DNA from: a virus
DNA length: 61,688 nt
Strand: one strand, 5' to 3'
IMG/VR virus record: IMGVR_UViG_3300044620_001837
The stretch's first letter is position 1; each line of letters begins with the position of its first letter. Of the stretch, positions 1,620 through 61,688 are shown in pieces. Position numbers and translations under genes: made by a program. The notes below the pieces were generated by a model that worked only from the letters and a program-made list of their open reading frames with translations, was not told where the DNA came from and searched no databases.

Positions 1620-2045
1620 CCCCTGTCAATCCCTCTAGAGAAAGTTCTAGGGGGATTTTTGATGCGATGTAGAGAGAATAGGGATAGAAAGAAAAATGTT
1701 ATCTCTGTTAATCAATGTTATTTCCTCTCTAACATTCTCTATCCCTTTCCTCGCTTACGTTTCAGGCTTTTGTTATGGCTGTTAGGGGATTTTTTGTGTT
1801 TCCCGTTTTGTGTCGTTCGCTTTCCCGATCCCCTCAAAATTCCCCTTTATCCCCATTCTTCCCACCTCCTTGATAGAATCTATATCCCGATCAGTTTTCG
1901 TGTCTCTAGGCGTATTCTTATGGTCGAGTCTGGTTATTTACATCTTTTCTCTTTTTTTACTAGGATCGCCACAACATCCATAACACATTCCTGAAAAGCT
2001 TATCCCGTAAGCTTTTCAGGATGTTAGAAACTCTCTAACATTGAC
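1620..2045 (-). repeat. Dispersed non-coding element, copy A (inverted relative to copies B and C)
   Basis: The reverse complement of 2019-2043 equals 22770-22794 (CAATGTTAGAGAGTTTCTAACATCC). The reverse complement of 1951-1974 matches the GCGATCCTAGT box of B and C. 1631-1668 is the inverse of 53203-53240. It contains a perfect 13-bp hairpin at 1989-2019. Confidence 0.8.
1631..1660 (+). terminator. Rho-independent terminator-like hairpin
   Basis: CCCTCTAGA-gaaagt-TCTAGGGGG (9 bp, one G:T pair) followed by ATTTTT. The same hairpin occurs inverted at 53208-53240. Confidence 0.6.
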
Positions 2046-2127
2046 CTAATCCCGATAACATGGACGTATAGAGATTAATCTATAGTAACTATTCGGAAAA
2101 TTACGGGAAAAAATTCTAAAAATTCAC

Positions 2128-11900: not shown

Positions 11901-14900
11901 AAAACAGCAATTAGCCTATCAAGTACCACGCCCGCGAGTATTTTTCGGTAAAACAAAAGAAGGTAATTTAACTGTTATGGAAGGTCAAAAAGACATGACT
12001 CCACAACAGTTAGAGAAATATGCTCGCTCTATGGGATTTACTGCTGTTATGCTTCCCGATCATGGGAATATGGCGCGGTTAACAGTGCCGGGTCAATCTA
12101 TGAGCCGCATTTTGCCACAATCGTTAGGAGGGACTGGAAAATCTACCCCTTACCAATTAAGATTTTTTGAACGTCCTCAAATAGAAAGCAAACAAGCGAA
12201 GCTATCAGAATCTTCTAGTGTAGTTACCCCTCCTGTTGAAAAAGAAAAAAATCTTTCAGCAAGCAATGTCTTTGATACTGTTGTTGATAGAGAATTGTCT
12301 ATCAGTCCTCAATCAACAACTAACAAAATATTACCAATTAAACATATTTCTAGAAAAGTTGAATCTGCTGACAAAGCATTAACTAACGATCTGTTAGAAT
12401 TTATAGGCAATTATGGGTTAACCGTTGCTTCTTTATTAAGTTTGCTTGGAATAACTGGAAAAGTTGCATCTAAACTTAAAAAAGCAAGTCAACGACAAAA
12501 ACCCTTAGAGGCTATTCCAGTCATTGAAAACATACCACAGCCAAAACAGTCAAATAATACTAATTTATCTCGTATTATAGATGTTGAGTTTAGCGTCGTT
12601 GATGAAAAAATAGATTTTACTTATGTGCAAGCTACTAAGAAGCGCATAAGTGCAATGGGGAGAAAAATTATTGAAGACATCAAATCCTCTAACCCCACTA
12701 TAGACACTTCTGGTACAGTAAGAGCCTTTGAAGAAACCGCAAATAAACTTAGTGAAGATTTTAAACAGCGGATCAACAAAAACAGGACAACCCTCATAGC
12801 TACATCTTTAAATGTATCACGTCCACAACAGGTTTTACCTAGTTTACCAAAGCCAGACATAAAGTCTATATCGCCTGATTTTATCAAATCAATTCAGAAT
12901 AGAAAACTTTCAGCTTTTTCTAATATAGTATTACCAAAACCTCCAAGCATAACACCAGTTAATATACCTACTAGCACGGCAAGCATTAATAAGCTTGGAG
13001 AAACTGCAAAAGACTACATAGATGTTATTTATAAAGTGATAGACGAAGGGGAAAAAGTCGAAAAGAAAATAAAACAGCTTGCTAAAAATTATACTGAAAC
13101 CCCCTCGCCGCAGGAAGCAAGCAATATTCCCGCTCAAGCTGGCTTAGGCGGCAGTGGAGGTGGCAAAAAACCGCCTAGACCTCCTCGTATTGCAGCTTCT
13201 GCTAGTCCCGAACCTGAACCTAAAAAAGAAAAGTTTGATGTATCTAAAGAGGCTGAAAAAGCTTTAAAAGATATTCAAAAGGCTAGAGAGGCAATAAATA
13301 AACTTGACAAAGAAGAGGAAAAACTTAAAAACTTAAAAATAGAATTAGGAATAGAACCAAAAACGACAAGAGAAAAAATTCTTGGAGACTGGAATAAAAA
13401 ACGAGACAATATTTTCAACGCTCTCGATAGTATTGAAAAAGCGGGCGTTTCTAGTGGCTTTACAGACGGCATCGTGACTGGACTTAAAACCGCTATCGCC
13501 CAAGCTGACGGATTTATCAATTTCCTCTCGGTCGGTGGCAAAGCACTCAGAACTCTCGACAAAGAACTCGATGCCGCTACTGGTGGGATGATCAACCTTC
13601 GCAAAGCATCACTAGCAGTCATCGGGGGATTTGCGCTATTCAAAACCGCTGAATTCCTGTTAGAGCCTTTGTTTTTTGCAATTCAGGATTTGCCGTTCCG
13701 AGTACAACAAGCGGTCACGGATTCGTTACTCGCATTTACCGAATTACAGCAAATCAGGATCAACCTCGACATTGCTGGCGTTAACAACGTTGATACGGCA
13801 ATTGACGGACTGCGAAATCGGGCTGATGAACTTGGTATCTCATTCAGAGAATCAGCCAAGCAATACGCCCAGTTCCAGATCGTGACGACTGGCTCACCAC
13901 TACAAGCTCAAGGTGATGACATTTTTGAGGGTTTTCAATCTGCCCTTGCGGTACGGCAAACTAACCCACAACAGCAAACTGAAACATTCCGAGCGATCAA
14001 CCAAATGGCCGCCCGCTCGGTGCTATCAGTAGAAGAATTCACCCAACAATTAACCGAGTCTGGGGGACTGTACGACGCGCTGATTGTTGCGGCGCGTGCG
14101 ATGGGGATGACAACCGCTGAATTCTACCGGCAAGCGTCGGCTGGGCAATTACTTTCTCAGGACGTGATCCCCCGGTTAGCGGCTGAGTACGAACGCCTAA
14201 GTGCGGGGGGAATCGGTGCATCGAGCAAAACTTTACAGGCGGAAATGAACCGCTATCAGAACAATATCGAACAATTATCGATGTCCACAGGGGAAAAACT
14301 TGGCGTTGTGGCTTATCCCGCGCTACAGCTACTTAATACTCTCCTAAAAGGACTAAATGACAATCTCGGCTTAGTTGCGACGGTAAGCGCGTCTGCGGTA
14401 ATCGCCACAATCGGACTACTCGGAAAATCGGTACTGCAATTTTCCGCCGCTACTCGGCTAGGACAAGGATTAATCGCTTCTTACAACGCCTCGTTATTTG
14501 CGATGGGAGTTACCGCAGGGCAAACAACGACCAAAATGCAAATGTTGTCTGCCACGGCAAAAGTAGCGGGCGGAGTGCTAAAAGCAACAATTGGAGCGAT
14601 GATCGTTCCTGCGGCGACGATCGTTGCGCTTCAAACGTTTTACGATATTTTCGAGAACGGGGACGCAAATCTTAAAAATTCGCTTCAAACCCTCAAAGAA
14701 TCGAGAAAAGTTTTAGAGGATTTAGGGAAAATTGAACCCGAAAACGAAAACAAAAATCTCTGGAATAAATTTTTCCCCGATATGAACCTATCGGGAACCG
14801 AGAAATTCTTTAACGTTCTGACGGTCGGAACCGTTTACACCTTTAAGCGAAACAATGCTGTTCGCGACCAGCAAGAAAATCTCAAAAACATCCGAGAAGG

Positions 14901-19528: not shown

Positions 19529-22093
19529 GTGGCTAATTTCCTAATCCCTACCGCTATCGGACTCGGAGCCAATCTACTCCTAACACTACTAGCCCCGTCT
19601 GGCCCGCGACAGCAAAAAGGGAAAATCGAGGACACCGGTGTTCCCGATGCTGAGTTCGGATTCTCCCTCTCCCTCCCCTTTGGGCGGGTGCGAAAAAAAG
19701 GATTGCCGATGATGTGGGCTTTAAAGCTAAAAGAAAGAAGAAAAGTATCGGGAGGGAAAGGTGGTGGGACACAAATAGAAACTTTTTCCTACTTTTTAAC
19801 AGCCGCTTATCCAATCGCACGGGAAATCAGTTCTGTCCGGCGTGTTTGGATGAACCGGATATTGGTTTATAGTAGTGAGTCGGATGACCCGAGAAGCGAA
19901 AGGTTTTTAGAGCATTGCACAATCTACACGGGCGATCAGACTACGCCATCCTCGGTAATCCAAGAGAACGAACCAGACTACCCCATTCCTGTATTTAAAG
20001 GATGGAGTTATATGGCTTTTGATGATTATCCAATCGCTGAATATGAAGGCAGTGGATTTCCTCAAATTGAAGTGGAAGTTGTGGGGCAAAGCGGCGAAAA
20101 TCCTAAAGTCAAAGATATTCTTGTACGAATTTGCGAAATAGCGGGAATAGCCGAAAATAAAGTCGATGTGAGCGGGGTTCCCGATAATTTAGAGATTGAA
20201 GGCTTTGATTTACTATTTGATGGAACCTCGTTCGCCGATCAGATCGGGGAATTATTGAGAGCGTTTTTCTTGATAGTCAGAGAAACAAAAGATAAGCTTA
20301 TTTTCAAACAGCAAACAGCAGGGGAAGTCACCCATATCCCGAAACTGTCATTAGGGGCAAAAAAATTCGGAGATCGTCCGATAGATTTATATGAAATAAA
20401 GCTTACACATTTTCGAGAAATCCCAAGTGCCGTAACAGTAAACGGATTAAACATTAATAAAGACCAAGACGCTATTTCAGTTGTCGCAAAAGACCCCGCC
20501 GCAAAACACACTAACGAACTAACAATTCAAACCAAATTAATATCTAGTGATAACTTATTTATCACGCTTGCATCTCGCATTCTTTTCCTCGGACGCTCGC
20601 AATCCAAAACGTTTTCTAAAATGTTTTTATTGCCCACATGGGACGATCTTGCCGTAGGAGATTTAATATCGGCAGACGGCGACCGCTTATTCCATCGAGA
20701 GGTTTTACAGATCACAAAAAAAGTTAGAGGCGCAGGGTACTTGATCGAGTTAGAAGCGACTCGATTTCAGGGCTTTTCAAACCAGTGCAAGCATATAGCG
20801 GTCTACGATTTAGGAGTTTACAATGCTCCGGTTCCTCCCCAATTTGGGCAGTGGATTACACGCATTCAAAAGGGAACGGTGTTTGATCCGATTGAGTTTT
20901 ACCGTTCCCCGATGCGAGTAGAAACTACCTTGCCGCTCGGTCAGATTTCGCCACTGCCAAATACCGAATTTAGGATTTATGATGCTGACGACAATCTCAT
21001 TTTTACCCGAAATACAGCCCATGGACTCACTGCCGATTCAACGTGGTCACAAGTAACCGACTGTACTGGCATAGACCAGCTTACAAGCGATAATTTATTA
21101 GAAATTATTGTCGATCTTCCATTTGCCCCTCCCGTCGAAACTCCTGCAAGCTACGGTTCGGCTACAGCGATTGTTATTGAATGCCCACCGGTTAATTCCT
21201 CGGATGCCGATCTGGGTTTTTATCTTGCAATTGAAGGAGATGAAGACTATCGAACTGGGACAATATTTTACTCCGAGGACGGCGGGGAAAGCTACCTTTT
21301 TGCTACTGCTATTACTGGCGAAAGTGTGACAGGGACAGTGTTAAGTTTTAGCACAAACTTTAATAATTCGTCTCCTAATTTTATTGACGACCTCAATACA
21401 GTCCAAGTAAGAATGGATTCAGGAGAAATCGAGCCAGTAACACTTGAGAAATTCTTGTCAGGAAAACAACTCGGTTGGTTTTCTACGGGCGAAATTATCG
21501 CTTTTAAAAATGCGGAAATTGTCTCGAATAATCCACTAACTTTTGATATTTCCTACATGATTCGTGGCACTAAAGGAACCGAGGCTTTTATTGACAATCA
21601 CGCTATCGGAGAGCGGTTCGTACTGCTTACTGATTATCTTGTCCGCCTACCTGCTGAATTGTTCGATGTCAACCGGGAAGTTCGTTTTAAAATCGTGCCA
21701 GATGGATTGACCGAGACAGAAGTTGCTAACGAGACAATCCACACAGTCACACTAGAAAGCGTCAAGCCGTTTCCTGCGGTTGTGACATCGGAACGAGTCG
21801 GCGGTGACGTAATCATTTCGTGGTATCGGAGAACGCGGATTAACGGCCGATGGACGGACTATATCGATATTCCGTTTGCCCCAGGTGAACTCGATACCTA
21901 CACGGTCAGAATTTACGACGGTAGCACGATAAGACGGGAATTCGTAACTGGGGTGGGAGAGCGATCTGTCACCTACACCTCAGCACAACAAATAGCCGAT
22001 TGGGGATCAGTCCAATCGGCGTACACTGTTCGGGTTTTTCAGAATTCAAGTTACCCCGTGGCTTTCAAGGAAGCATTAGGGGTGAGCGTTTAA
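19529..22093 (+). CDS. Host-specificity / central tail protein (lambda J-like, GTA g15-like)
   Basis: 854 aa with a GTG start. The N-terminus ...SGGKGGGTQIETFSYFLTAAYPIA... resembles the conserved J/g15 N-terminal block. The gene follows the NlpC/P60 gene. Confidence 0.65.
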   Translation: MANFLIPTAIGLGANLLLTLLAPSGPRQQKGKIEDTGVPDAEFGFSLSLPFGRVRKKGLPMMWALKLKERRKVSGGKGGGTQIETFSYFLTAAYPIAREISSVRRVWMNRILVYSSESDDPRSERFLEHCTIYTGDQTTPSSVIQENEPDYPIPVFKGWSYMAFDDYPIAEYEGSGFPQIEVEVVGQSGENPKVKDILVRICEIAGIAENKVDVSGVPDNLEIEGFDLLFDGTSFADQIGELLRAFFLIVRETKDKLIFKQQTAGEVTHIPKLSLGAKKFGDRPIDLYEIKLTHFREIPSAVTVNGLNINKDQDAISVVAKDPAAKHTNELTIQTKLISSDNLFITLASRILFLGRSQSKTFSKMFLLPTWDDLAVGDLISADGDRLFHREVLQITKKVRGAGYLIELEATRFQGFSNQCKHIAVYDLGVYNAPVPPQFGQWITRIQKGTVFDPIEFYRSPMRVETTLPLGQISPLPNTEFRIYDADDNLIFTRNTAHGLTADSTWSQVTDCTGIDQLTSDNLLEIIVDLPFAPPVETPASYGSATAIVIECPPVNSSDADLGFYLAIEGDEDYRTGTIFYSEDGGESYLFATAITGESVTGTVLSFSTNFNNSSPNFIDDLNTVQVRMDSGEIEPVTLEKFLSGKQLGWFSTGEIIAFKNAEIVSNNPLTFDISYMIRGTKGTEAFIDNHAIGERFVLLTDYLVRLPAELFDVNREVRFKIVPDGLTETEVANETIHTVTLESVKPFPAVVTSERVGGDVIISWYRRTRINGRWTDYIDIPFAPGELDTYTVRIYDGSTIRREFVTGVGERSVTYTSAQQIADWGSVQSAYTVRVFQNSSYPVAFKEALGVSV

Positions 22094-22742: not shown

Positions 22743-22769
22743 GTAATTTCTCTGTTATTTTTCCCCCTC

Positions 22770-23045
22770 CAATGTTAGAGAGTTTCTAACATCCCGAAAC
22801 GTCCACGGGGAACGGGTTCTAGGGTTTTGTTATTGGAGTTATCCCGATCCTAGTGAGAAAGAAGGATAGGAGAGGGATAAGCGAGGTCAACCGCTAAGAT
22901 GAAGGTTTTCTGTAGAGAAAAAACGAGAGTCGAGGATCGGGGAAACATCCATAACAAAAGGATAGAAGTATTGATATATATACTTTTTCTTATGTTATTT
23001 ACTCCCTAACATCGCTTTAACATCCTCAACGTAGGATACTTGTAC
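22770..23045 (+). repeat. Dispersed non-coding element, copy B
   Basis: 22770-22794 equals the reverse complement of 2019-2043. 22953-23016 matches 53100-53163 with 4 mismatches in 64 nt by my alignment. TAACATCC boxes lie at 22787, 22943 and 23018. Confidence 0.8.
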
Positions 23046-23072
23046 TACCCACCTCGCTATTTTCCCTAATCT

Positions 23073-23100
23073 TAGATTTCTAAAATAATTTAGAAATCTA
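23073..23100. promoter_or_regulatory. Perfect 12-bp inverted repeat abutting the -35 of P3 (operator candidate)
   Basis: TAGATTTCTAAA-ataa-TTTAGAAATCTA ends 1 nt before TTGACA at 23102. Confidence 0.45.
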
Positions 23101-23101
23101 C

Positions 23102-23162: not shown

Positions 23163-24167
23163 ATGTCAGGCGAAATTGTTAAAGCTTCATCGAGTCCGCT
23201 AGAGTTAAAGACGATTGACGACATGAAAAAACTAGCGTCTTTAATGGCAGAGTCCAAGCTGTTTACTGATACGCAATCAGTGGCACAATGTTTTGTAAAA
23301 GTTCTTGCCGGGAAAGAGTTGGGGATTCCCGCTTTTGCCTCGATGACTGGAATTCATATCATTAAAGGCAAGCCTGTTATTAGTGCCAACCTAATGGCTA
23401 CCCTAATTAAGGGGTCAGGTAAGTATCGATACAAAAAATTATTGCACGACGCTGACAAGTGCGAGATTGAATTTTTTGAGTTAATACAGGGCAAGTGGGA
23501 ATCGCTCGGCGTGACCTCGTTCACGATGCTGGACGCAAAAACCGCAGGACTCGGTAGTAATCCAAACTGGCAGAAGTTTCCTAAGAATATGCTTTTCGCT
23601 CGGTGTATCTCTAATGGGTTCCGCGAGTTCTGTCCCGATCTCGCCCTCGGTGCGCCTGTTTATTCCTTTGACGAACTAGGAGCAGAAGTAAACGAAAACG
23701 GGGACGCAATCAATGTGGAAGTAGTCAAGCCTCGAACCGAACCCGATATTTCCGAATGGGTTCCCCGAATGATGAACTACGCAGTTAATGAATTGGGAAT
23801 GAGTTCAGATACTGCGAGAGATATTTTCAAAAAGCACAATGCTTTCAAGGACGAAAAAGCTAAGGGGAAATGCTGGAAAGATATTCACGTCACAGCATTA
23901 GTAAACGCAGGGGTTGACGCTTTTGTGGCGGAATCAATTTACAAAGAAAACAGCAAAAATAAGGACGCTCTAAAAATAGCTGTTCTTGATAGAATTACCG
24001 CGTTAAATAAAAGCGGTAATCCCGACACGGGAGGAAAAGTTACGTTTACCGCAGAACAAGTAGTCGGCAACGAAATCAATCCAGAAATCAGCGCAGAAGT
24101 AGACGCAATGATCGAGGACAGATTACTAAAAACTGTCCCCGTCTCTGAAGATTCGGACGATTTCTAA
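23163..24167 (+). CDS. recT: RecT/Redbeta-family single-strand annealing protein
   Basis: ...VKVLAGKELGIPAFASMTGIHIIKGKPVISANLMATLIKGSG... and ...NWQKFPKNMLFARCISNGFREFCPD... match the conserved RecT-family blocks. Confidence 0.7.
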   Translation: MSGEIVKASSSPLELKTIDDMKKLASLMAESKLFTDTQSVAQCFVKVLAGKELGIPAFASMTGIHIIKGKPVISANLMATLIKGSGKYRYKKLLHDADKCEIEFFELIQGKWESLGVTSFTMLDAKTAGLGSNPNWQKFPKNMLFARCISNGFREFCPDLALGAPVYSFDELGAEVNENGDAINVEVVKPRTEPDISEWVPRMMNYAVNELGMSSDTARDIFKKHNAFKDEKAKGKCWKDIHVTALVNAGVDAFVAESIYKENSKNKDALKIAVLDRITALNKSGNPDTGGKVTFTAEQVVGNEINPEISAEVDAMIEDRLLKTVPVSEDSDDF

Positions 24168-25465: not shown

Positions 25466-26044
25466 CTAGATTTGAAGTCCGATCAATGGGTAGACGCTCA
25501 AGAATGTTGCGAGAGACTTAAAATCTCTCGCAATTGCTTGAAAATCCGAAATTTTAGCAAAAAGTGCCTGTAGTTCCCCGACAATAATCGGGGCTTTAAC
25601 CTGAATGTCGGCATTTCGGAATATCTCGGCCGCTAGATTGGGATTTAGGTTCGGCTGTCCCTGTTTGCGATAATTAGGGTCTTTTGTAAATTCGCTAATT
25701 GAATCCCACTCACCATTTAGGTAGGTTACGAACGAATCTGTGTCAAGCCCAAATACTGCAGCCAAGAGTCGCATATTTCCAAGATCGGGACAAGAGGCAA
25801 TGCGGGTGACTTCCCAGTTTTGGATCGCCCCAACAGATACTCTTGCCCCGGGGATTTTTAGCCTTGCTCCTTCCGCTTCGATCCAATCCGTAAAAGCTTC
25901 TTGGGTCATCCCCAAATTTTCTCGTTTTTCTTTGAGACATTTGCCGAGGCGTTCAATTCCATGCTCGGTTAACGCAGAAGATTTTGTGCGCTTCCTCGGA
26001 ACTTTTTCGCCTTTTTCGTTGGTAACAGTACGCGATACAGCCAT
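25466..26044 (-). CDS. XRE-family HTH transcriptional regulator (CI-like repressor candidate)
   Basis: LGMTQEAFTDWI...VSVGAIQNWE is an HTH_XRE core. The gene is divergent from a small RHH gene. No S24 peptidase motif was seen. Confidence 0.7.
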   Translation of the reverse strand: MAVSRTVTNEKGEKVPRKRTKSSALTEHGIERLGKCLKEKRENLGMTQEAFTDWIEAEGARLKIPGARVSVGAIQNWEVTRIASCPDLGNMRLLAAVFGLDTDSFVTYLNGEWDSISEFTKDPNYRKQGQPNLNPNLAAEIFRNADIQVKAPIIVGELQALFAKISDFQAIARDFKSLATFLSVYPLIGLQI

Positions 26045-26190
26045 ATCAACTTTCTAGTGTGTATGTTAATGGAATACAAAATATTCTAGCGCGTATTCCA
26101 TAAACACGACAACATAACATAAATGTCAATATTGGACAGACGCTGTGCTATTCTAAGAACAGAGCCATCTATCGCATTACTAGAATTATC
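26045..26190. promoter_or_regulatory. Divergent switch region between the repressor-like and Cro-like genes
   Basis: Inverted repeat TGGAATAC (26070-26077) N15 GTATTCCA (26093-26100). ATTCTAG/CTAGAAT boxes lie at 26083-26089 and 26180-26186, with a variant ATTCTAA at 26150-26156. On the minus strand, TTGACA is at 26129-26124 and TAGAAT at 26089-26084. Confidence 0.5.
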
Positions 26191-26544: not shown

Positions 26545-29370
26545 ATGTATCTTATGAATACTATGATAACACACAATCGCGTCAAGTTGCAACCCTGCCC
26601 CCACTGCGGGAATCGAAACGAAACAAATTACTGTTACGGATTCACATCGGATGAGGGAAATCTGCTCTCTGTCTGCAAGCGAGGAGCGGAACCCGGCGAG
26701 GGGTGGGAGAAGTCGGGAAAAACCGACAGCGCGGGCGATTCTATCTACTATTTGAAGCGTGACAAGAAGTTTTCAGAATTTAAGAAAGAGAAAACCACCT
26801 ACTACGCCTATCCCAAGCTTGCCAACGGCACGATCGTCCAAGTGTACCGGAAGGATTACCAAGAAGACGGGCGATGGAAAAAAGAAATTCGTCAGCAACA
26901 CTCGACAAACAACGGGAAAACGTGGAATTGGAACCTGCAAGGCATTAACTACAGCGAGATTCCCCTTTACCATGCCGAACGACTGAAGAAAGCGATCGGG
27001 GTGGGAACTCCGATTCTAGTAGTCGAGGGAGAGAACAAGGTAGAGAAGTTAGAAGCGATGGGATTCGTCGCCACCTGTAGCCTCGGCGGGGCGGGAAAAT
27101 GGCAACCATCACACTCGGAATTTTTGAAGGGAGCGAAACTAATTCTCTGCCCAGACCGGGATAATCCTGGCGTGAAGCACGTTCAGCGCATCTATCAAGA
27201 TTTTCCCGACGCTCGCTTCCTGTACGCCTACCCCGATTCCCCATTGTGGGATCATCTTCCCGAATCCGGAGGATGCGATTTAATCGATTGGATCGAGGAA
27301 ACAAAAGCCACAAAAGAGCAAGTCTTGGCGGGTGTAGTCGATACCCCGAAAGAATTACGGGTTAGGGAGCCTAAAAGCAAACCCACAGAGCAACTGCTAT
27401 CCCTAGAGGATATCGTCCCCGCCATTGACGCAGCGATCGAACAACACCTGACCCTTACTAAGTGGGAAGCGAAGATACATGAGTGGGCAAAACTCACGGG
27501 CAAGACACCGAGCGATATTCGCGAACTGAAAAAGGCACGGGAACGGGAACTAGAAGAGTCAGAACGGATCGACACGGGAATAACTGACTTTCTCCAGAAT
27601 AATCACTATCGGCAAGACAAGCTCGATATATTCAAGATCGTTCCCCGCCCCCTCGCCGAAGCTCTAGATTCACGGGCTAAGACGATCAACCAGCCATCGA
27701 TCCGACTACTGCATTCGCTCTGGCCGGTCATGGGCGCAATCCTCGGTTCTCGATTTGCTGTCAATCTCCGCACAGCGAGAAACTCCAGGAATTGTTGGAA
27801 AGAATCCCCAATCTTTTACATGGCGGATGTAGATTATCCGAGCGGCGGAAAAACCACGACACAGAAGCAGATTTACCGCGTTTTGAAGGAACGGGATAAA
27901 GTCGAGCAAATGCGAGTGGATCAAGAAGAGGTACACCTTGAAGACTTAAAGTCCTCATGGGCTGAAATGACCCGCGAGGAACGCAAGGAGAACATCACAA
28001 ATCCTAGCGTTAACCCGCGCCTTTACGAGCGAGAACACTGCAAGGCTAAACGATGGGTCTACGATCATGGAACCCTAGATGCAATTCTAAAATCGATTTC
28101 CTTGCAGTCCCCGTGGCAAGGTTCGGTATGGCTGGCCGACGAACTAACCGGGCTATTTGACGGGATGAACCAGTACAAGAGCGGCGGAAAGGGAAGTGAT
28201 CGCCAGAAATTACTAGAGGCTTGGAACGATCCGCTACAATTCACTTTTGACCGCGTAAACCGCGAGAGTCGGTACAGCATGAACGGGCAAACCCTTAATA
28301 TATTGGGGGGGATACAAGTCGGAAAACTTCGGAAGTACCTCGATCTTTCCGATGATGTGGATGGGCTAGTTTCCCGGTTTCATTTTTTGATCAACGAACC
28401 GCTCGATCCCGTCCCCGGTCGCCCGCCAATGGACGAGAACTCGGTCGAGGACTTGATACTAGAAGCGTTTAATCGGGTAAGCGGTATCGAGCTAGAAATC
28501 GGGGAAAGCGGTGTCGAACGTTACGATCTTTGGTTTACCGAGAAAGGCGAAACTTTTGCATGGGACGTGAATCACCGCTACAACAATCTCGTTAAGCAAA
28601 ATCGAGCCAAAAACCCCGCTTTTACGGCGTACATCGGGAAACAGATGAAAGAGTTTTTGCGGTTTGCTATTACCATCCACTTGCTGAATTGGATTTACGA
28701 TCCCGAACACACCGATCTTTACAAAATCCCCGTCCAGACCGCAGCGAAAGCGGCCGCCGTGACCGATTTTTATATCAACCAATTTCTCGCTATTCAGGGC
28801 ATCACCGGGGGCGACGATCAGAATCCCATTCAGGGTATTCTGCATGAAATCTGGGAAATCGTGAGAACTTTTGGCAAAATTACGACCCGCGAGGTTCACC
28901 AAAAATTTCAGAGCCGGAAGATTGACGGGCAAAAGATGAACTCTGGACTCGCTCTTGAACTACTCAGTCAATTGCAGAAAGCCGGACACGGACGGCTTGA
29001 GGGAAAAACTCTACACTTCCAAGAGCCACAAGCGATCGCCGTAGAAGAAATAGTATTCGAGGAAGAAGAGTTTACTGTTCTAGCTTCGGAGCAAAAGACC
29101 GAACCGCCCCGCCCCGAAGAATACTCGGCTGATGGTGTACACCTTGACAGTTTGCCAAATTTTGAGCGGCAGGAAGTTCTGATCCGAACCGCAGAACCGA
29201 TAGACACGGGAGAGCGAACTATTCCGACCCGAACGATCGCCCGAATCGTGGGCGTGACCATCGACACGATCGGCAATTGGCTGATTGAAGCAGAAGCTCG
29301 AATAGGTGAGGCTGTGGCTCGGTTTAGTTTGCCGTTCGGAAGTTGTTATGTGAACGACGTGGGGACGTGA
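26545..29370 (+). CDS. Bifunctional Toprim primase / P-loop helicase (P4-alpha / DUF3987-like)
   Basis: Zn-binding CPHCGN...C. Toprim motifs ILVVEGENKVEKL and ILCPDRDNPG. P-loop YPSGGKTTTQ. 941 aa. Confidence 0.75.
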   Translation: MYLMNTMITHNRVKLQPCPHCGNRNETNYCYGFTSDEGNLLSVCKRGAEPGEGWEKSGKTDSAGDSIYYLKRDKKFSEFKKEKTTYYAYPKLANGTIVQVYRKDYQEDGRWKKEIRQQHSTNNGKTWNWNLQGINYSEIPLYHAERLKKAIGVGTPILVVEGENKVEKLEAMGFVATCSLGGAGKWQPSHSEFLKGAKLILCPDRDNPGVKHVQRIYQDFPDARFLYAYPDSPLWDHLPESGGCDLIDWIEETKATKEQVLAGVVDTPKELRVREPKSKPTEQLLSLEDIVPAIDAAIEQHLTLTKWEAKIHEWAKLTGKTPSDIRELKKARERELEESERIDTGITDFLQNNHYRQDKLDIFKIVPRPLAEALDSRAKTINQPSIRLLHSLWPVMGAILGSRFAVNLRTARNSRNCWKESPIFYMADVDYPSGGKTTTQKQIYRVLKERDKVEQMRVDQEEVHLEDLKSSWAEMTREERKENITNPSVNPRLYEREHCKAKRWVYDHGTLDAILKSISLQSPWQGSVWLADELTGLFDGMNQYKSGGKGSDRQKLLEAWNDPLQFTFDRVNRESRYSMNGQTLNILGGIQVGKLRKYLDLSDDVDGLVSRFHFLINEPLDPVPGRPPMDENSVEDLILEAFNRVSGIELEIGESGVERYDLWFTEKGETFAWDVNHRYNNLVKQNRAKNPAFTAYIGKQMKEFLRFAITIHLLNWIYDPEHTDLYKIPVQTAAKAAAVTDFYINQFLAIQGITGGDDQNPIQGILHEIWEIVRTFGKITTREVHQKFQSRKIDGQKMNSGLALELLSQLQKAGHGRLEGKTLHFQEPQAIAVEEIVFEEEEFTVLASEQKTEPPRPEEYSADGVHLDSLPNFERQEVLIRTAEPIDTGERTIPTRTIARIVGVTIDTIGNWLIEAEARIGEAVARFSLPFGSCYVNDVGT

Positions 29371-51160: not shown

Positions 51161-52228
51161 TTAAATTTCATCCCATCCAGTTAAGCCAGAAGACATAACA
51201 TAACTGGTAACGGTTGCTTCAAAAAAGTTAGCTTTGGTGTGGCCTTCTTTTTTGGTATCGGAGAAGCGTTCCAGATGGGTATAGGGACTTTTGTTATACT
51301 TTTCTTCCTTGTATAAAGGCTCAAGTCCGATCGCTTTCAGCCGAATATTAGCGAGGTATTTGGTGTACTGTTCGGTACTGTATTCGGTAATACCTAAAAT
51401 GTCGTTGCCAACAATGTGATTTGTCCAGCGACATTCGTGTTTAACGGCAGTATCGAACATCTCATAAATCTGTTCAACGGAATAGGAGAAAGTGTCCATA
51501 GCTTCCGGAATAAGTTTCTGATACAAACGGACGTGACTTAATTCGTCCCGGTTGATCATTTTGAAAACGTCAGCACTACCCGACATTAGCTGTCGAGAAG
51601 CGAGATTATAGAAAAAGATAAAGCCGTTGTAAAAGTACAAACTCTCCAGCAAATAATCGGCGACAAGGGCGATAAAATAGCTTTCAGTAGTTTGTTTGTC
51701 GATATATTGCTGGTAGAGACTAGCAATAAATTCACAGCGATCCCTGAGAACTTTATCAGTGCGCCAAAAGTCATAAACTTCGCCTCTGCGAGCGGAGGGA
51801 ATAATCGTTTCAATTAAGTATTGATAACTTTGATTGTGCATGGCCTCTTGAGAAATTTGTTCCGCCATACAAAGACTAATTTCTGGGGCAGTGACGCTAC
51901 CTTTTAGGTGGGGAATATTACAGGTTTGTACGGAATCAAGAAAAGTTAGATAGGACAAAATACCATCATAAGCAGATCTTTCTTCGTCGGCAAGATGCCC
52001 GTATTCAGTCACGTCTTGAGTGATATCTAATCGTTGCGGAATCCAGAAATTTTCACGCATTTGTTGATATAAACCCACCGCCCAAGTGTAGCGGACATCG
52101 TTTAATTGCATCAGGTTGGTGGTGTTACCAAACCAGATCGAACGGTTTTCGATCGCATCATCTCCCGCCGGATTGAATATCGGGGAAATGGGCATTGAAT
52201 GGGGAGAATTAACTAAATGTAAGGACAT
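51161..52228 (-). CDS. nrdB: Ribonucleotide reductase class I beta (R2) subunit
   Basis: Di-iron ligand motifs EAMHNQSY, LLESLYFYNGF and DELSHVRLY. 355 aa. The C-terminal tail is ...SSGLTGWDEI. Confidence 0.9.
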   Translation of the reverse strand: MSLHLVNSPHSMPISPIFNPAGDDAIENRSIWFGNTTNLMQLNDVRYTWAVGLYQQMRENFWIPQRLDITQDVTEYGHLADEERSAYDGILSYLTFLDSVQTCNIPHLKGSVTAPEISLCMAEQISQEAMHNQSYQYLIETIIPSARRGEVYDFWRTDKVLRDRCEFIASLYQQYIDKQTTESYFIALVADYLLESLYFYNGFIFFYNLASRQLMSGSADVFKMINRDELSHVRLYQKLIPEAMDTFSYSVEQIYEMFDTAVKHECRWTNHIVGNDILGITEYSTEQYTKYLANIRLKAIGLEPLYKEEKYNKSPYTHLERFSDTKKEGHTKANFFEATVTSYVMSSGLTGWDEI

Positions 52229-52744
52229 AATTGCCGTTGATTGAAAGACAGGAATTGATTGACTCGGATATTACTGCTTGATTTAGCCAATCACCTAAAT
52301 TATCCTCAAAGTAAAATCTTTGCAGGAACTAGACAACACAGTATTTGAAGCAAAACCGCTTCAATTCAAGCAAATTTTGTAGAAATACAACTATCGTGGG
52401 GCGCACGAAAAGTAACGCTTGGGGAAAGAACTACCTCTGGACTAGGAATCGCAAGGGACTTAGTTTAAGTGGACTTGTTGAACCAAGAATCCCTCGCTTT
52501 TAGCGATGGGAGCGTCAAGTGCATAATAAAAGCTAACTTATCCCCTCTCGGAAAATGTTCTATTTCCCCCTTTTTAGGGCATTTTCGAGGTGAGAAGTGG
52601 TTTAGGGCTAATCTTTTTCGTACCAAAACCGACCGCGAAACTCCCATTTATCCCTGTATTTTTGAGTAGGTTCCCCCTTTTGTTTCCATCGAGTGATATT
52701 GCTTTTTAAATTGGGACACTTCCCTGTTATCGATGTGTGAAACT

Positions 52745-53245
52745 CTAACATTTTCAATAACATCCGAAATCCATTTCTATCAAGCTTTTCAGAAAAATGT
52801 TAGGATGTTCGGGCGATCCTAGTGAGAAAAAAGTCGGGAGAAAAAGAGATGTGTTACATGAGTAGTATGTGTAATACATCGAACTCTACTATAGGGATCG
52901 CTGTTCGAGGTGTGTGGGGATGTTAGAGATGTTTTAACATCCTGAAACGCTTACTCTGTCTACAATGTAGCAAAGTGTTATGGATGTTTAGCCGATCCTA
53001 GTAAGAAGAAAAAATGGGAGAAGATAGAGCAAGGTCATCCGTGAAAAAGTAAGAAATTGGATCAGGAAAAAGTAAACACAGAAAATTGATTAACACTCTA
53101 ACAAAAGGATAGAAGTATTGATATATCTATCTTTCCTTATGTTATTTACTCCCTAACATCGCTCTAACGGTCTAACATCCCTATCCCGTCCCCGTCCCCA
53201 CATCGCACTAAAAATCCCCCTAGAAACTTCTCTAGGGGGATGGAC
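52745..53245 (+). repeat. Dispersed non-coding element, copy C (left module duplicated in tandem)
   Basis: The left module occurs at 52745-52833 and again at 52918-53015 (TAACATCC ... GGATGTT ... GSCGATCCTAGTRAGAA). The right module 53100-53163 matches 22953-23016. The terminal hairpin is at 53208-53240. Confidence 0.8.
53208..53240 (-). terminator. Rho-independent terminator downstream of the BRO-N gene
   Basis: The minus strand reads TCCCCCTAGA-gaagtt-TCTAGGGGGA (10-bp perfect stem) followed by TTTTTAG. Confidence 0.7.
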
Positions 53246-53261
53246 GTAGGATTCTATCGTT

Positions 53262-54020
53262 TTAGTGGGTTCTGCTCACTCTGACTCGCAGTTTAGTCAC
53301 TCCTGATGGAATACTTTCTTGATCGCACTCACATCGCTCTAAAACCTCTGGCAAAAGCGATCGCAAAATAGCCGAATTGATTTTGACAAGGTTTCCCTGT
53401 TCATCGGGAATCTTGCGGGATTGAAACTTCTGATGGAGATCCCGAACTTTGGGCATGACTCCTTTTACCTGGACGAACCGATCGATGAATGCGGCCATAT
53501 CGTCTAGTAACCTTTCCCGTATCTGTTTTCCGGTAAGTTTTCCTGCGGAATACTGTGCATATTCGATCTGGTTTTGTTCTAGGCGAAGTTCCTCGATTAT
53601 CCGATCATTAGTGCTTACAATCCGTTCCCGTTCTAGCTCGATTTTTGCGGTTTCTAGTTCAATTTTCAGGGTTTCGACCTCCGACAACTCTTGCCGTTGT
53701 CCATATCCCCCCGTCTTGCGGATTGAGGGCAGAACTTTTTCAAAAACCCAGTCTTGGAATTTTTCTGCGGCTGGTAACTTGGAAGAGAAAATCAGTTGAT
53801 AGATACCGGGTTCCTCTAGAACCATTACATCACGGAGTTTTCCGTCAAGTGTCTGGGATTTACAGACACTTTTGTTTTTCTCGTTAACAAGTCGGTAAAC
53901 AGCGTCGGCGGGATCGGCGTAACCCAACACTCGGGCTACATCGTTAGCGACGGGGCGATCGCCGACAAAACGGATTTCTTCGTCTTGAAACTCGAAAACT
54001 GCTAAATTAGAGTTAGCCAT
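53262..54020 (-). CDS. BRO-N domain protein (phage antirepressor-like)
   Basis: LAVFEFQDEEIRFVGDRPVANDVARVLGY...GIYQLIFSSKLPAAEKFQDWVFEKVLPSIRKTGGY is the BRO-N signature. I chose the start at MANSNLAVF. Confidence 0.8.
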   Translation of the reverse strand: MANSNLAVFEFQDEEIRFVGDRPVANDVARVLGYADPADAVYRLVNEKNKSVCKSQTLDGKLRDVMVLEEPGIYQLIFSSKLPAAEKFQDWVFEKVLPSIRKTGGYGQRQELSEVETLKIELETAKIELERERIVSTNDRIIEELRLEQNQIEYAQYSAGKLTGKQIRERLLDDMAAFIDRFVQVKGVMPKVRDLHQKFQSRKIPDEQGNLVKINSAILRSLLPEVLERCECDQESIPSGVTKLRVRVSRTH

Positions 54021-54116
54021 AGTGTTAACCTTTCTAACATTGTGGTCAGACCTTCTAGTGTTCGCTAGGGGCATTTTTGTTATACAGCTTCAGAAAGTTT
54101 CTGTTATGATGGATAA

Positions 54117-54187
54117 TGCAGGTGAGTGAAACGGCTCACGCAAGGCTCATAACCTTGAAACAGCGGGTTCGACTCCCGTGCCTGCGT
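54117..54187 (+). tRNA. tRNA-like gene with anticodon CAT (Met, or Ile2 if lysidinylated)
   Basis: Hand-folded cloverleaf with segment lengths 7/2/4/6/4/1/5/7/5/5/5/7/5/7/1. The anticodon loop is CTCATAA, the T-loop TTCGACT and the D-loop contains GG. The acceptor has two G:T pairs and position 8 is G. TATGAT at 54105-54110 is placed as a -10. Confidence 0.6.
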
Positions 54188-55866
54188 TACCGTCCTCGTC
54201 CCCTCGATAATCCGGCCCTAAATTCGTTCACCGGGCTGGGCGATGCAATCGGCATCACTCCATCATCATCATGTCCCAGAAACTCATTTTCAAGGGAATA
54301 GAACGCGCCAGACAAGGAATCAACTATGTCATTTACTGGTGGTGTCTTTTTGTTGCCATCAAAGTTCTGGCAAGCATTAAGAAATCGATTATTCCAGACG
54401 GAGTCACGAAGTAAAAATATCTGTCCCCTACTGGCCGCCGTGGCCGCAGGTAACGCCCGTGTTAATTTGTCTCCCTGTGGGGCGATCGCTGCCACATCAT
54501 GATTCGGATGATATTCTCGGATGACATTGGTGATCGTATTTTCTACAAATTTACCGCTCGATCCGCCCTCTTGTTCCCACCGAACCGCCACGGGTTTCCC
54601 ATCTATCCCGGCAGTGTTTTTCAACATTAATTCAACTTCCCCGACTTTTTTCTGCTCACAGAGATTATCGGCGACAACGTAAACAAATTCTCTTACTTCT
54701 TTTCCGTCCGATAGTACGGTTTTAATACGCTCGTATTTATAAACAAGCGTTCCAGAAGTGTAGCAGTGATAATTCTCGGCATTTTCCTTCGCTGTAGCGG
54801 CCAAGTCCCAGAATCGCACTTTTCCGATCAGTTTCCAGTCATCGGGAATGCTATCCAGTATCTCGAACCATGTGCGATCAAAAACAGTTCCAGCTTCATA
54901 TTTAACCTTCCAGTTTCCCTTGAGTAGCCTTTCTCGCTCGATCGGATGGAGAGCGTACAGGTTAGCAAGGTAAGTAGGATTGACCTTAATTAAGGCTCGA
55001 TTATCAAAAATTGTAGCGGGGATGAAAGTGAAGCTTTTTACTAAATCTTCTGGTTTAATTTTTACATCATCGTCCGCTAAAAACTCCTCTCGAATATCGG
55101 GCGGGATCATCTCGAAAAGCTTGTTTTTAAGGTCAAACTTTTCGATTAGTTCATCTCTTGTATCAGCCCAATGTACGGTATTTCCTTCTCGTACAAAATA
55201 CCGCACGACTCCCGCTCTTTCCTCGATAGCGTATCCCGTCCGCGGGTCGATCCACCACGAGATAAAATCGGCTACCCAACTATCAGCATCGGGGTTACAG
55301 GTAGCCCTGACTGCCGGCTTAATTCCCGATACCGATCTATTACGGGAAAGGAGATAGAAAAATTGATCTTCCGTAAAGTGAGTTAGCTCATCAAAGCCGA
55401 TTCGGGCAATCTGCGCCCCTTGGTAGCTGTAAACGGTTTTTTCGTGCTGTAAATGCCGAAATGATATTCGCGAACCGCTTGCAAACCTCCATTCAAGGTT
55501 CGGTTTTTCTGCGAAACTTCCCTTGATCGGTTGATAGATTTTCCTGCTTTCATCAACCAATCCGCCCGCTTGCGTAAATTCGGGATAAGTACGCCGAAAA
55601 ATTACCGCTCGGTAGTCGGGATTATCGATAAATTCTTGTCGGGCAAAATCGACTAAAAGGGCGTGAGATTTCCCGGAGCCGGCCGCACCGCCGAAAATTA
55701 TTACATCTGCGTCAACTGCCCCGAAAAGAGCCTGTTTTCCTTCCTGCAAACGAGGAAATGTGACGATATTATTTGCCGCATTCGTTTCTTGAATGCGGCG
55801 ATAGGTTTCCGTGTTGGATTTAATCTTTGATCGGTTTTTAATCGATAGTCCGTTACGGAATTTCAT
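54187..55866 (-). CDS. terL: Terminase large subunit
   Basis: Walker A FGGAAGSGKSHALL, Walker B IGFDELTHF, and a C-terminal nuclease-type block VRFWDLAAT. 559 aa. Confidence 0.85.
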   Translation of the reverse strand: MKFRNGLSIKNRSKIKSNTETYRRIQETNAANNIVTFPRLQEGKQALFGAVDADVIIFGGAAGSGKSHALLVDFARQEFIDNPDYRAVIFRRTYPEFTQAGGLVDESRKIYQPIKGSFAEKPNLEWRFASGSRISFRHLQHEKTVYSYQGAQIARIGFDELTHFTEDQFFYLLSRNRSVSGIKPAVRATCNPDADSWVADFISWWIDPRTGYAIEERAGVVRYFVREGNTVHWADTRDELIEKFDLKNKLFEMIPPDIREEFLADDDVKIKPEDLVKSFTFIPATIFDNRALIKVNPTYLANLYALHPIERERLLKGNWKVKYEAGTVFDRTWFEILDSIPDDWKLIGKVRFWDLAATAKENAENYHCYTSGTLVYKYERIKTVLSDGKEVREFVYVVADNLCEQKKVGEVELMLKNTAGIDGKPVAVRWEQEGGSSGKFVENTITNVIREYHPNHDVAAIAPQGDKLTRALPAATAASRGQIFLLRDSVWNNRFLNACQNFDGNKKTPPVNDIVDSLSGAFYSLENEFLGHDDDGVMPIASPSPVNEFRAGLSRGRGR

Positions 55867-57279: not shown

Positions 57280-57882
57280 ATGCCAGATAAGTTAGCGATC
57301 GAATATTGCCGCCTCTCCGATCTTGTTCCGCTAAAAAGCAATTCCAAAAAGCACGCAACCGAAAACACGATCGCTCTGATTCTTGAATTTGGATTTAAAG
57401 ACCCGATAGGCATAGACCCGTCTCTTAACAAGGGGAAAGGAGGGATTACAGAGGGTCATGATCGCCGTGCGGCTTTACTAGAAATCAAAAAACGGAATAT
57501 TAAGCCGCCGCGGGGAATTTTGACCGATAAAGACGGAGAATGGTTAGTGCCTGTTTTGATAGGAGTAGAGGCGGAAAGTGAGGGAAAAGCTGTAAAATAC
57601 TCCATTTTACACAACCATTCTACGATTCACGGGGCAGGACTCGATCCTATCGATGAGCTAAAATTATTCGATCACGATCTGCTACTCGAACAAGCAGAAT
57701 ATCTCGATAGCGAGGGGGAAAATTTAGGAGCGATCGGGGATTTAAATTCAATTCTTGCCACCTTGAATGTAGGAGACAGCGACGATAGTGGCGATGAAAT
57801 TCCCGACGATAATCAAGATATAGATGAAGAAAGCTTAGGAGAAACCAAACACGAATGCCCAAACTGTGGCTTTAAATGGTGA
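57280..57882 (+). CDS. ParB N-terminal (ParB/Srx nuclease-like) domain protein with a C-terminal Zn-ribbon
   Basis: LSDLVPLKSNSKKH...LEFGFKDPIGI...ITEGHDRRAALLEI is the GxxRxxA-type ParB box. The tail is acidic, and the end has CPNCGFKW. It overlaps the methyltransferase start. Confidence 0.65.
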   Translation: MPDKLAIEYCRLSDLVPLKSNSKKHATENTIALILEFGFKDPIGIDPSLNKGKGGITEGHDRRAALLEIKKRNIKPPRGILTDKDGEWLVPVLIGVEAESEGKAVKYSILHNHSTIHGAGLDPIDELKLFDHDLLLEQAEYLDSEGENLGAIGDLNSILATLNVGDSDDSGDEIPDDNQDIDEESLGETKHECPNCGFKW

Positions 57883-61548: not shown

Positions 61549-61688
61549 ATGCTTAACAGAGAAAAACGTACAATAGAAATACAAATTGAATACAAAAAAC
61601 AAAGACTTTCTGTAGTTGAATTACAAATTAGAAAACACCGAAATCCTGGTAAATACAAAAAAGAAAGAGACTTGATTTTGTCTGAAAT
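61549..61688 (+). CDS. Junction-spanning small hypothetical protein, 5' part (58 aa in total, ending at 100)
   Basis: ATG 61549 is preceded by AAGGAG (61535-61540) and P8. Translation is MLNREKRTIEIQIEYKKQRLSVVELQIRKHRNPGKYKKERDLILSEI..., and the frame continues across the 63-bp overlap. Confidence 0.55.
   Translation, partial: MLNREKRTIEIQIEYKKQRLSVVELQIRKHRNPGKYKKERDLILSE
61626..61688. repeat. Terminal direct repeat, right copy (identical to 1..63)
   Basis: Exact 63-nt identity with the window start. Confidence 0.9.

Follow-up and report, generated by a model that had tools for sequence, protein, structure and literature searches.

What do three intergenic blocks, each crowded with the same short box, do for the phage genome that carries them? 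The question is raised by IMG/VR virus record IMGVR_UViG_3300044620_001837, a stretch of 61,688 nt (hereafter the window) which holds a complete phage genome, assembled as a circle of 61,625 bp, with an exact repeat of bases 1–63 at 61626–61688. Blocks A (~1709–2056), B (22768–23026) and C (52739–53173) share homologous modules, and the three compound elements take up about 2% of the genome. A reading of the sequence alone (the sequence-only reading) had described these blocks with module coordinates that hold to ~10 nt, and a repeat search recovers the left-module homologies together with a right-module pair (22952–23021 and 53099–53168, 93%). The pentamer TAACA/TGTTA occurs 31 times in the 1,183 nt of the three blocks against 2.4 expected (P ~6e-24), and the blocks are the three densest clusters of it in the genome; the hexamer ATGTTA/TAACAT has 19 copies there where 0.4 would be expected, half of all those in the genome, so that the enrichment of the boxes is 13- to 47-fold. 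The blocks carry no coding signal, as the reading frames are short and unconserved in relatives and the substitutions are without 3-nt periodicity, in agreement with the earlier view that no credible open reading frame (ORF) lies in them. These blocks form a conserved, previously undescribed family of compound non-coding elements, and we put at even chances the explanation that they are cis-acting DNA arrays of protein-binding boxes rather than genes.

The elements are built from one repeated unit. The right module, which had been taken as a separate sequence, aligns as the reverse complement of the left module, and in an RNAalifold fold of three B orthologues the entire left module pairs with the entire right module. 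Eleven left arms and ten reverse-complemented right arms align as one family of 21 units, termed unit U, of ~100 nt. A profile hidden Markov model of U finds exactly seven matches in the window (E = 1e-9 to 1e-20), all within the blocks and always in facing (head-to-head, inward) arrangement, while no unit was found with this profile in the more distant phages L129 and L130 (47–51% terminase identity). Each unit contains six (A/G)TGTTA-type boxes, where the first three are direct and lie ~10 bp apart (at ~0, 10 and 20), an inverted TAACA follows 13–14 nt on, and the last pair, TGTTAT-GRATGTT, comprises a TGTTA 41 nt beyond the inverted box and a GTT after a further 8–9 nt. This spacing (~10, 10, 13–14, 41 and 8–9 nt) is constant in 21/21 units, and the 41-nt interval holds its length even though L-type and R-type units have unrelated sequences within it (identity 0.36, against 0.63–0.64 in the box regions). 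The centre between the inner boxes measures 103–104 nt in every copy of B and C across the three lineages and 189–190 nt in A of the window and of L127, has 35–52% GC and carries an invariant GC..GGTC motif. Two to four units are present per locus and the copy number differs between lineages; C carries extra tandem units, and in the relatives it has two units per side.

Relatives were found by pattern scans and protein-anchored searches, which return near-identical variants of the window as well as two further lineages, the L127-type (L127, L202, L206, L208 and L209; terminase identity 67%) and the L207-type (L207, L218, L227 and L238; tail protein identity 86%). A, B and C all stand at syntenic positions in both. 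Element B of the window is ~80% identical to that of L209, while the tail gene next to it shows 37% identity at its four-fold degenerate sites, an essentially saturated level; against L207 the values are ~79% for the element and 58% for these sites. Because the identity of the element lies well above that of the degenerate sites, the elements are under strong purifying selection, equal in strength to that acting on the structural gene beside them. The B centre is ~88–90% conserved among orthologues, the A centre is ~70% identical to its L127 orthologue, and the ~162-nt gap between the A units also occurs in L238. The boxes themselves have changed in concert, as the L127-type lineage has TAACACCC and GAATGTT (GAACGTT in the B copy) across its paralogues where the window has TAACATCC and GGATGTT, a pattern that could reflect either boxes and a binding protein evolving together or gene conversion among the copies. 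Over 70 nt, the right arms of the window's B and C share 93% identity; being closer to each other than B of the window is to its own orthologues, they point to gene conversion, perhaps recent, between the loci. B and C have in their R arms a TATATA-centred palindrome, which is missing from A and which keeps opposite half-sites in different lineages.

All three elements mark boundaries between major transcription units. Block A has on one side the terminator of the operon that runs from 59 kb to 1.5 kb and on the other the structural operon's promoter; B separates the end of that structural operon from the promoter that serves the recombination/replication module; C comes after the terminator of the terminase/Bro operon. 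Their orientation relative to the flanking operons is inconsistent, A and C being reversed after a terminator and B forward. Since the gene content on one side of each element varies by lineage, the elements stand at mosaic junctions.

The sequence-only reading had listed a structured RNA family among the candidate roles and noted that TAACATCC can pair with either of two partners in mutually exclusive hairpins. A riboswitch-like RNA of this kind, or one long two-arm hairpin RNA, would account for several features: inverted repeats are many, RNAalifold folds B into a single long hairpin of -55 to -63 kcal/mol, the local hairpin of element A in the window is a perfect 14-bp stem, the strand bias of the centres described below agrees in direction with a possible -10 element, and the whole element, not the boxes alone, is conserved among orthologues. 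The substitutions tell against such pairing. Non-compensatory changes in the L127-type lineage break the TAACATCC/GGATGTT helix in three paralogues (the left arms of A, B and C2), the paired percentage of the two alternative local hairpins, H1 and H2, is that of column-shuffled alignments (71.6 against 72.0 for H1 and 70.7 against 70.0 for H2), and their covariation scores equal those of the shuffles, in tests whose power is limited because only three lineages are available. The consensus fold of the left modules reaches only -1.28 kcal/mol, the two arms of one element complement each other no better than do a left and a right arm from different elements, and G-U pairs are not commoner than A-C mismatches (1:6 and 16:19), so that neither strand bears an RNA signature. 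Rfam identifies tRNA-Met alone in the whole window and gives only chance-level matches at E <= 10 in the three loci, the U-runs of the adjoining terminators are on the opposite strand, the promoter scan returns no sigma-70-like site in C, and B of L207 begins 20 nt past the terminator of the tail gene, which leaves no room for a promoter. A structured RNA is thus improbable, and the alternating hairpins are not borne out.

Conserved boxes and spacing, free spacers, concerted box changes, the lack of selection on pairing and the lack of a consistent orientation make up the signature of protein-binding arrays, and of the roles listed in the sequence-only reading it is the binding array or origin that these features favour. 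As a working model, a sequence-specific DNA-binding protein, probably phage-encoded, would occupy the boxes on one face of the helix, and the two coated arms could come together as a higher-order nucleoprotein complex where the major transcription units meet. Such a complex may enhance or silence the promoters next to it, may serve as a replication origin, or may do both, like the homologous regions (hrs) of baculoviruses.

The promoters and terminators around the elements help to define what belongs to them. A near-identical sigma-70-type promoter (TTGACAATTCAAG-N-TATGAT, also written ACTTGACAATTCAAGAAA-N-TATGAT) starts six transcription units on the plus strand and one on the minus strand, and is kept in relatives (L207:12959 and L209:13878). 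A terminator hairpin had been thought to close A and C. The hairpins exist, but UUUUU comes after the one in 1622–1668 on the plus strand alone, where the hairpin is also more stable (-18.9 kcal/mol, against -14.3 on the minus strand), and after the one in 53205–53252 on the minus strand alone; as the U-runs are opposite to the orientation assumed earlier, these hairpins terminate the convergent operons and are neighbours of the elements rather than parts of them. Two further hairpin arrangements occur nearby. A perfect 12-bp AT-rich hairpin (TAGATTTCTAAA-ATAA-TTTAGAAATCTA, 23066–23101) abuts the -35 element of the RecT-operon promoter and is absent from the L207 and L209 orthologues. Upstream of C in relatives (L227 1140–1330 on the minus strand; L127 ~14270–14300), between C and a second Bro-N gene, a repeated GCGTTTCCCGATGCC is followed by terminator-like hairpins with differing stem sequences and T-runs.

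Several observations weigh against arrays that only bind protein. The centres are purine-rich on the same strand, that of the earlier orientation, with purine fractions of 0.67–0.79 in eight centres against a genome mean of 0.53, a bias which a pure binding array does not need and which hints at transcription or R-loop formation. The motif TACTATAG, whose TACTAT is a possible -10 element, is conserved just outside A-L and C-L2; it has two copies in the window, at the same relative place before these units, and the copy beside A is a candidate for either a -10 element or another palindromic site. These two features speak for a possible transcript. Furthermore, boxes are missing upstream of the remaining four copies of the consensus promoter, so that the elements do not accompany promoters in general; as AT-rich unwinding region, B and C offer nothing clear beyond the TATATA palindrome of the R arm, and A has not even that; and the comparison covers only three lineages. 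The InsA-like zinc-ribbon ORF, which is present in window-type contigs, is rejected as the binding protein, as it was not found in the L127-type and L207-type loci examined.

The purine bias and TACTATAG could instead mark R-loop or primer-RNA origins, in which transcription from a weak TACTAT promoter just outside the L arm runs through the unit into the purine-rich centre and the purine-rich RNA, held in a stable RNA-DNA hybrid, primes replication, as in T4 oriF/oriG or ColE1, with an initiator or the primase-helicase of the phage bound to the box arrays; the genome would then have three origins. The bias lies on the same strand in 8/8 centres, three lineages keep TACTATAG upstream of A and C2, a Toprim + DUF3987 primase-helicase is among the products of the phage, B heads the recombination/replication module, and inverted arrays around a centre are a typical origin layout. 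This explanation is nevertheless doubtful: B is without TACTATAG and in L207 starts 20 nt after a terminator, no -35 element accompanies the motif and the promoter scan is empty in C, the copies have no AT-rich unwinding element in common, and GC skew, which simply tracks gene orientation, offers no independent sign of an origin. A T7-like promoter (TAATAC...ACTATAGGGA) was also considered for the near-invariant block between C1 and C2, of which ~40/44 positions are identical across the three lineages and which is duplicated in L227. It was rejected, as the spacing is 4–5 nt too long and there are only two TACTATAG sites; that no single-subunit RNA polymerase was detected in the phage also counts against it. 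Promoters of the N4-like hairpin type for a giant virion RNA polymerase are rejected, as the 4,333-aa ORF encodes a tape measure protein.

Three dispersed arrays of short boxes, direct and inverted, beside promoters might likewise be partition (centromere) sites or global operators bound by a small repressor, in the manner of phage N15, whose centromere sites are dispersed, or of the omega-protein heptad arrays on pSM19035, which would imply a plasmid-prophage lifestyle. The genome encodes a protein with a ParB-like N-terminal domain, and no integrase was detected in the ORFs scanned. The ParB-like ORF, however, adjoins a C5 methylase and also matches DNA-methyltransferase families, no ParA-type ATPase occurs in the ORFs scanned (which did not include every small ORF), and the boxes are spaced apart and not contiguous. 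A partition role is accordingly very improbable.

The facing arms also resemble the ends of a mobile element, and the sequence-only reading had listed a degenerate MITE (a miniature transposable element with inverted repeats) among the roles. As a domesticated or relic foldback transposon, an ancient insertion later co-opted, each element would have its ~100-bp arms as ends with subterminal transposase repeats. Terminal inverted repeats are present, as the L arms and reverse-complemented R arms align over ~100 nt with several boxes each at ~10 bp spacing, the outer termini read TGTTAT...ATAACA, the two ends are asymmetric (three outer boxes are kept in R arms and fewer in L arms), the total size is 260–350 bp, the elements stand at junctions where the lineages differ in flanking genes, and the InsA-like ORF lies 1.4 kb from A. 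Exact-pattern scans of 185,579 species genomes with two specific patterns give zero matches, although diverged copies could escape because the scans require exact matches (a short pattern, CGATCCTAGTRAGAA, proved unspecific), and scans of IMG/VR and metagenomes return just the three syntenic loci. The synteny holds in lineages with saturated synonymous sites, the conservation is far above neutral and unlike that of a relic, no consistent target-site duplication was seen by eye, and no transposase or integrase domain is present in the ORFs scanned. With no pattern match in the genomes searched and synteny in three phage lineages, a MITE origin of this kind is unlikely.

Among known systems, the closest architecture is that of the baculovirus hr, followed by iteron origins with inverted arrays. 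The hrs are dispersed non-coding regions that act as enhancers and replication origins by way of a viral DNA-binding protein (PMC4535591). They resemble the phage elements in being several dispersed regions per viral genome, with variable copies of a 60–100-bp unit that holds an imperfect palindrome, the phage having 2–4 units per locus at three loci, with lineage-variable copy number and concerted evolution. The viral protein IE-1 binds the hrs. There is no sequence similarity, the phage units face each other around a purine-rich centre of fixed length whereas hr units are in tandem, and the bearer here is a tailed phage in a bacterium, likened by architecture and not by enhancer or origin activity. 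It is a tentative possibility that the elements are a phage counterpart of the hrs, a six-box ~100-bp unit arranged in three compound loci that serve a long-tailed cyanophage jointly as origins and as enhancers or boundaries and are bound by a phage protein co-evolving with the boxes.

Iteron origins with inverted arrays, as in the staphylococcal pathogenicity island (SaPI) ori, are known in several systems, herpes simplex virus (HSV) having three origins (oriS/oriL) and P4 having ori plus crr. Those of SaPI, P4 and HSV share with the phage elements the helically phased short boxes that flank a centre, the several homologous copies per genome and the own primase-helicase, but the phage elements lack a common AT-rich unwinding centre and only B lies near replication genes. 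The compound packaging sites of P1 and SPP1 (pac) consist of two short-box clusters around a central region; like these pac/cos sites, the phage elements have box clusters flanking a centre of ~80–100 bp with GATC-containing boxes at the inner ends, and C lies ~1 kb from the terminase gene, but three copies per genome are present rather than one, with A and B lying a long way from the terminase genes. The ends of Tn7 and Mu and foldback MITEs likewise have inverted ~100-bp arms, ~10-bp-spaced repeats, TGT...ACA termini and L/R asymmetry, differing in that the elements here have no transposase, target-site duplication or copies elsewhere and are syntenic under purifying selection. The stoperators of mycobacteriophages are repeated sites for one phage regulator, scattered in intergenic gaps (PMC9283540). 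They and the P1 C1 operator network are alike in spreading sites for one regulator across the genome; stoperators, however, are single asymmetric 13–14-bp sites, ~20–30 per genome, oriented with transcription, whereas ~6 boxes are locked here into a 100-bp unit at three compound loci only.

Tailed phages have little non-coding DNA, and what there is can usually be put down to promoters, to terminators or to one origin or packaging site. If the elements are multi-copy origins or enhancers, their box sequence, spacing rule and three deletable loci would provide handles on the replication organisation and transcription-unit switching of the phage, and the hr-type solution of large insect viruses would exist in phages too. 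The box and spacing pattern also serves as a search key for the binding protein. Known regulator motifs were compared with the boxes by eye, and none of NtcA (GTA-N8-TAC), the RpaB HLR1 motif, DnaA boxes and Pho boxes fits. The features of the elements and of the surrounding genome are listed in Table 1.

Table 1. Coordinates of the three elements, their neighbours and selected genes in the window
Feature	Position	Strand	Remarks
A unit U, R-type (formerly the diverged right module)	1709..1795	+	nhmmer E = 3.5e-9
A centre, purine-rich on minus strand	1796..1957	-	purine fraction 0.69
A unit U, L-type (formerly the left module)	1958..2056	-	nhmmer E = 1.2e-20
TACTATAG motif, 24 nt outside A L-type unit	2080..2087	-	kept in L127 and L238 orthologues
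B unit U, L-type	22768..22855	+	nhmmer E = 1.5e-17
B centre, 103 nt between inner boxes, GC..GGTC	22856..22929	+	purine fraction 0.70
B unit U, R-type	22930..23026	-	nhmmer E = 1.5e-19
C1, first L-type unit, outer hairpin arm degenerate	52739..52824	+	nhmmer E = 3.9e-12
C1–C2 near-invariant block, TGTTACAT-N9-ATGTGTAATACA palindrome, then TACTATAG	52845..52895	+	
C2, second L-type unit	52913..53003	+	nhmmer E = 4.6e-19
C centre, 103 nt between inner boxes	53004..53078	+	purine fraction 0.72
C unit U, R-type	53079..53173	-	nhmmer E = 1.5e-13
Consensus promoter copies	2128, 23102, 29585, 40815, 49262, 59056	+	
Consensus promoter copy	22742	-	
Intrinsic terminator, neighbour and not part of element	1625..1662	+	plus-strand operon ending before A
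Intrinsic terminator, neighbour and not part of element	53214..53241	-	TerL/Bro-N convergent operon; terminator scan
InsA-type transposase zinc ribbon ORF, 65 aa	87-284	+	PF03811, 32.4 bits; 1.4 kb from element A
Tape measure protein ORF, 4,333 aa	5923-18924	+	matches tape measure families
Tail protein	19529-22093		
RecT-like protein	23163-24167		
Toprim + DUF3987 primase-helicase	26545-29370		
Helicase gene with intein (Hint + LAGLIDADG homing endonuclease domains), plus DnaJ-like segment	31418-34402	+	
Ribonucleotide reductase small subunit	51161-52228	-	
Bro-N/Ant-like protein	53262-54074	-	
tRNA-Met	54117-54187	+	between minus-strand Bro-N and terminase genes
Terminase large subunit (TerL)	54187-55866	-	
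ParB-like N-terminal domain ORF	57280-57882		adjoins C5 methylase, also matches DNA-methyltransferase families

The phage has no close cultured relative, the closest cultured terminase being only 42% identical, and a nucleotide comparison of the element and a 20-kb stretch with 50,697 phage records gives no homologue, the sole match being a 40-nt insertion sequence (IS)-like fragment. The length of the tape measure protein implies an exceptionally long tail; endolysin and RusA are also encoded. The 40-nt fragment lies within a window-specific insert (52465–52720; core 52479–52518) that separates the ribonucleotide reductase gene from element C. Its core is 91–97% identical to a site found in the Microcystis phages MaMV and Ma-LMM01, in the latter at a transposase gene, and is matched exactly in one Microcystis sp. 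genome and one Spirulina subsalsa genome; it is probably the remnant of an IS end and a hint to the host. The shared IS-like fragment together with GCGATCGC (HIP1) motifs points to a cyanobacterial host, and this uncultured phage group probably infects bloom-forming cyanobacteria.

The same insert contains a 36-mer, GTTTCCATCGAGTGATATTGCTTTTTAAATTGGGAC (52675–52710), which resembles a CRISPR repeat in matching Rfam CRISPR-DR7 at 21.7 bits (E = 0.17), and which has zero exact copies among the 185,579 genomes; that it is a solitary repeat of the RNA anti-CRISPR type is an idea only. Elsewhere in the genome, an inverted repeat (ATGGAATAC-N16-GTATTCCAT, 26060–26125) lies in a divergent region beside a weakly HTH_3-like ORF (25466–26044) and is a candidate operator, unrelated to the box family.

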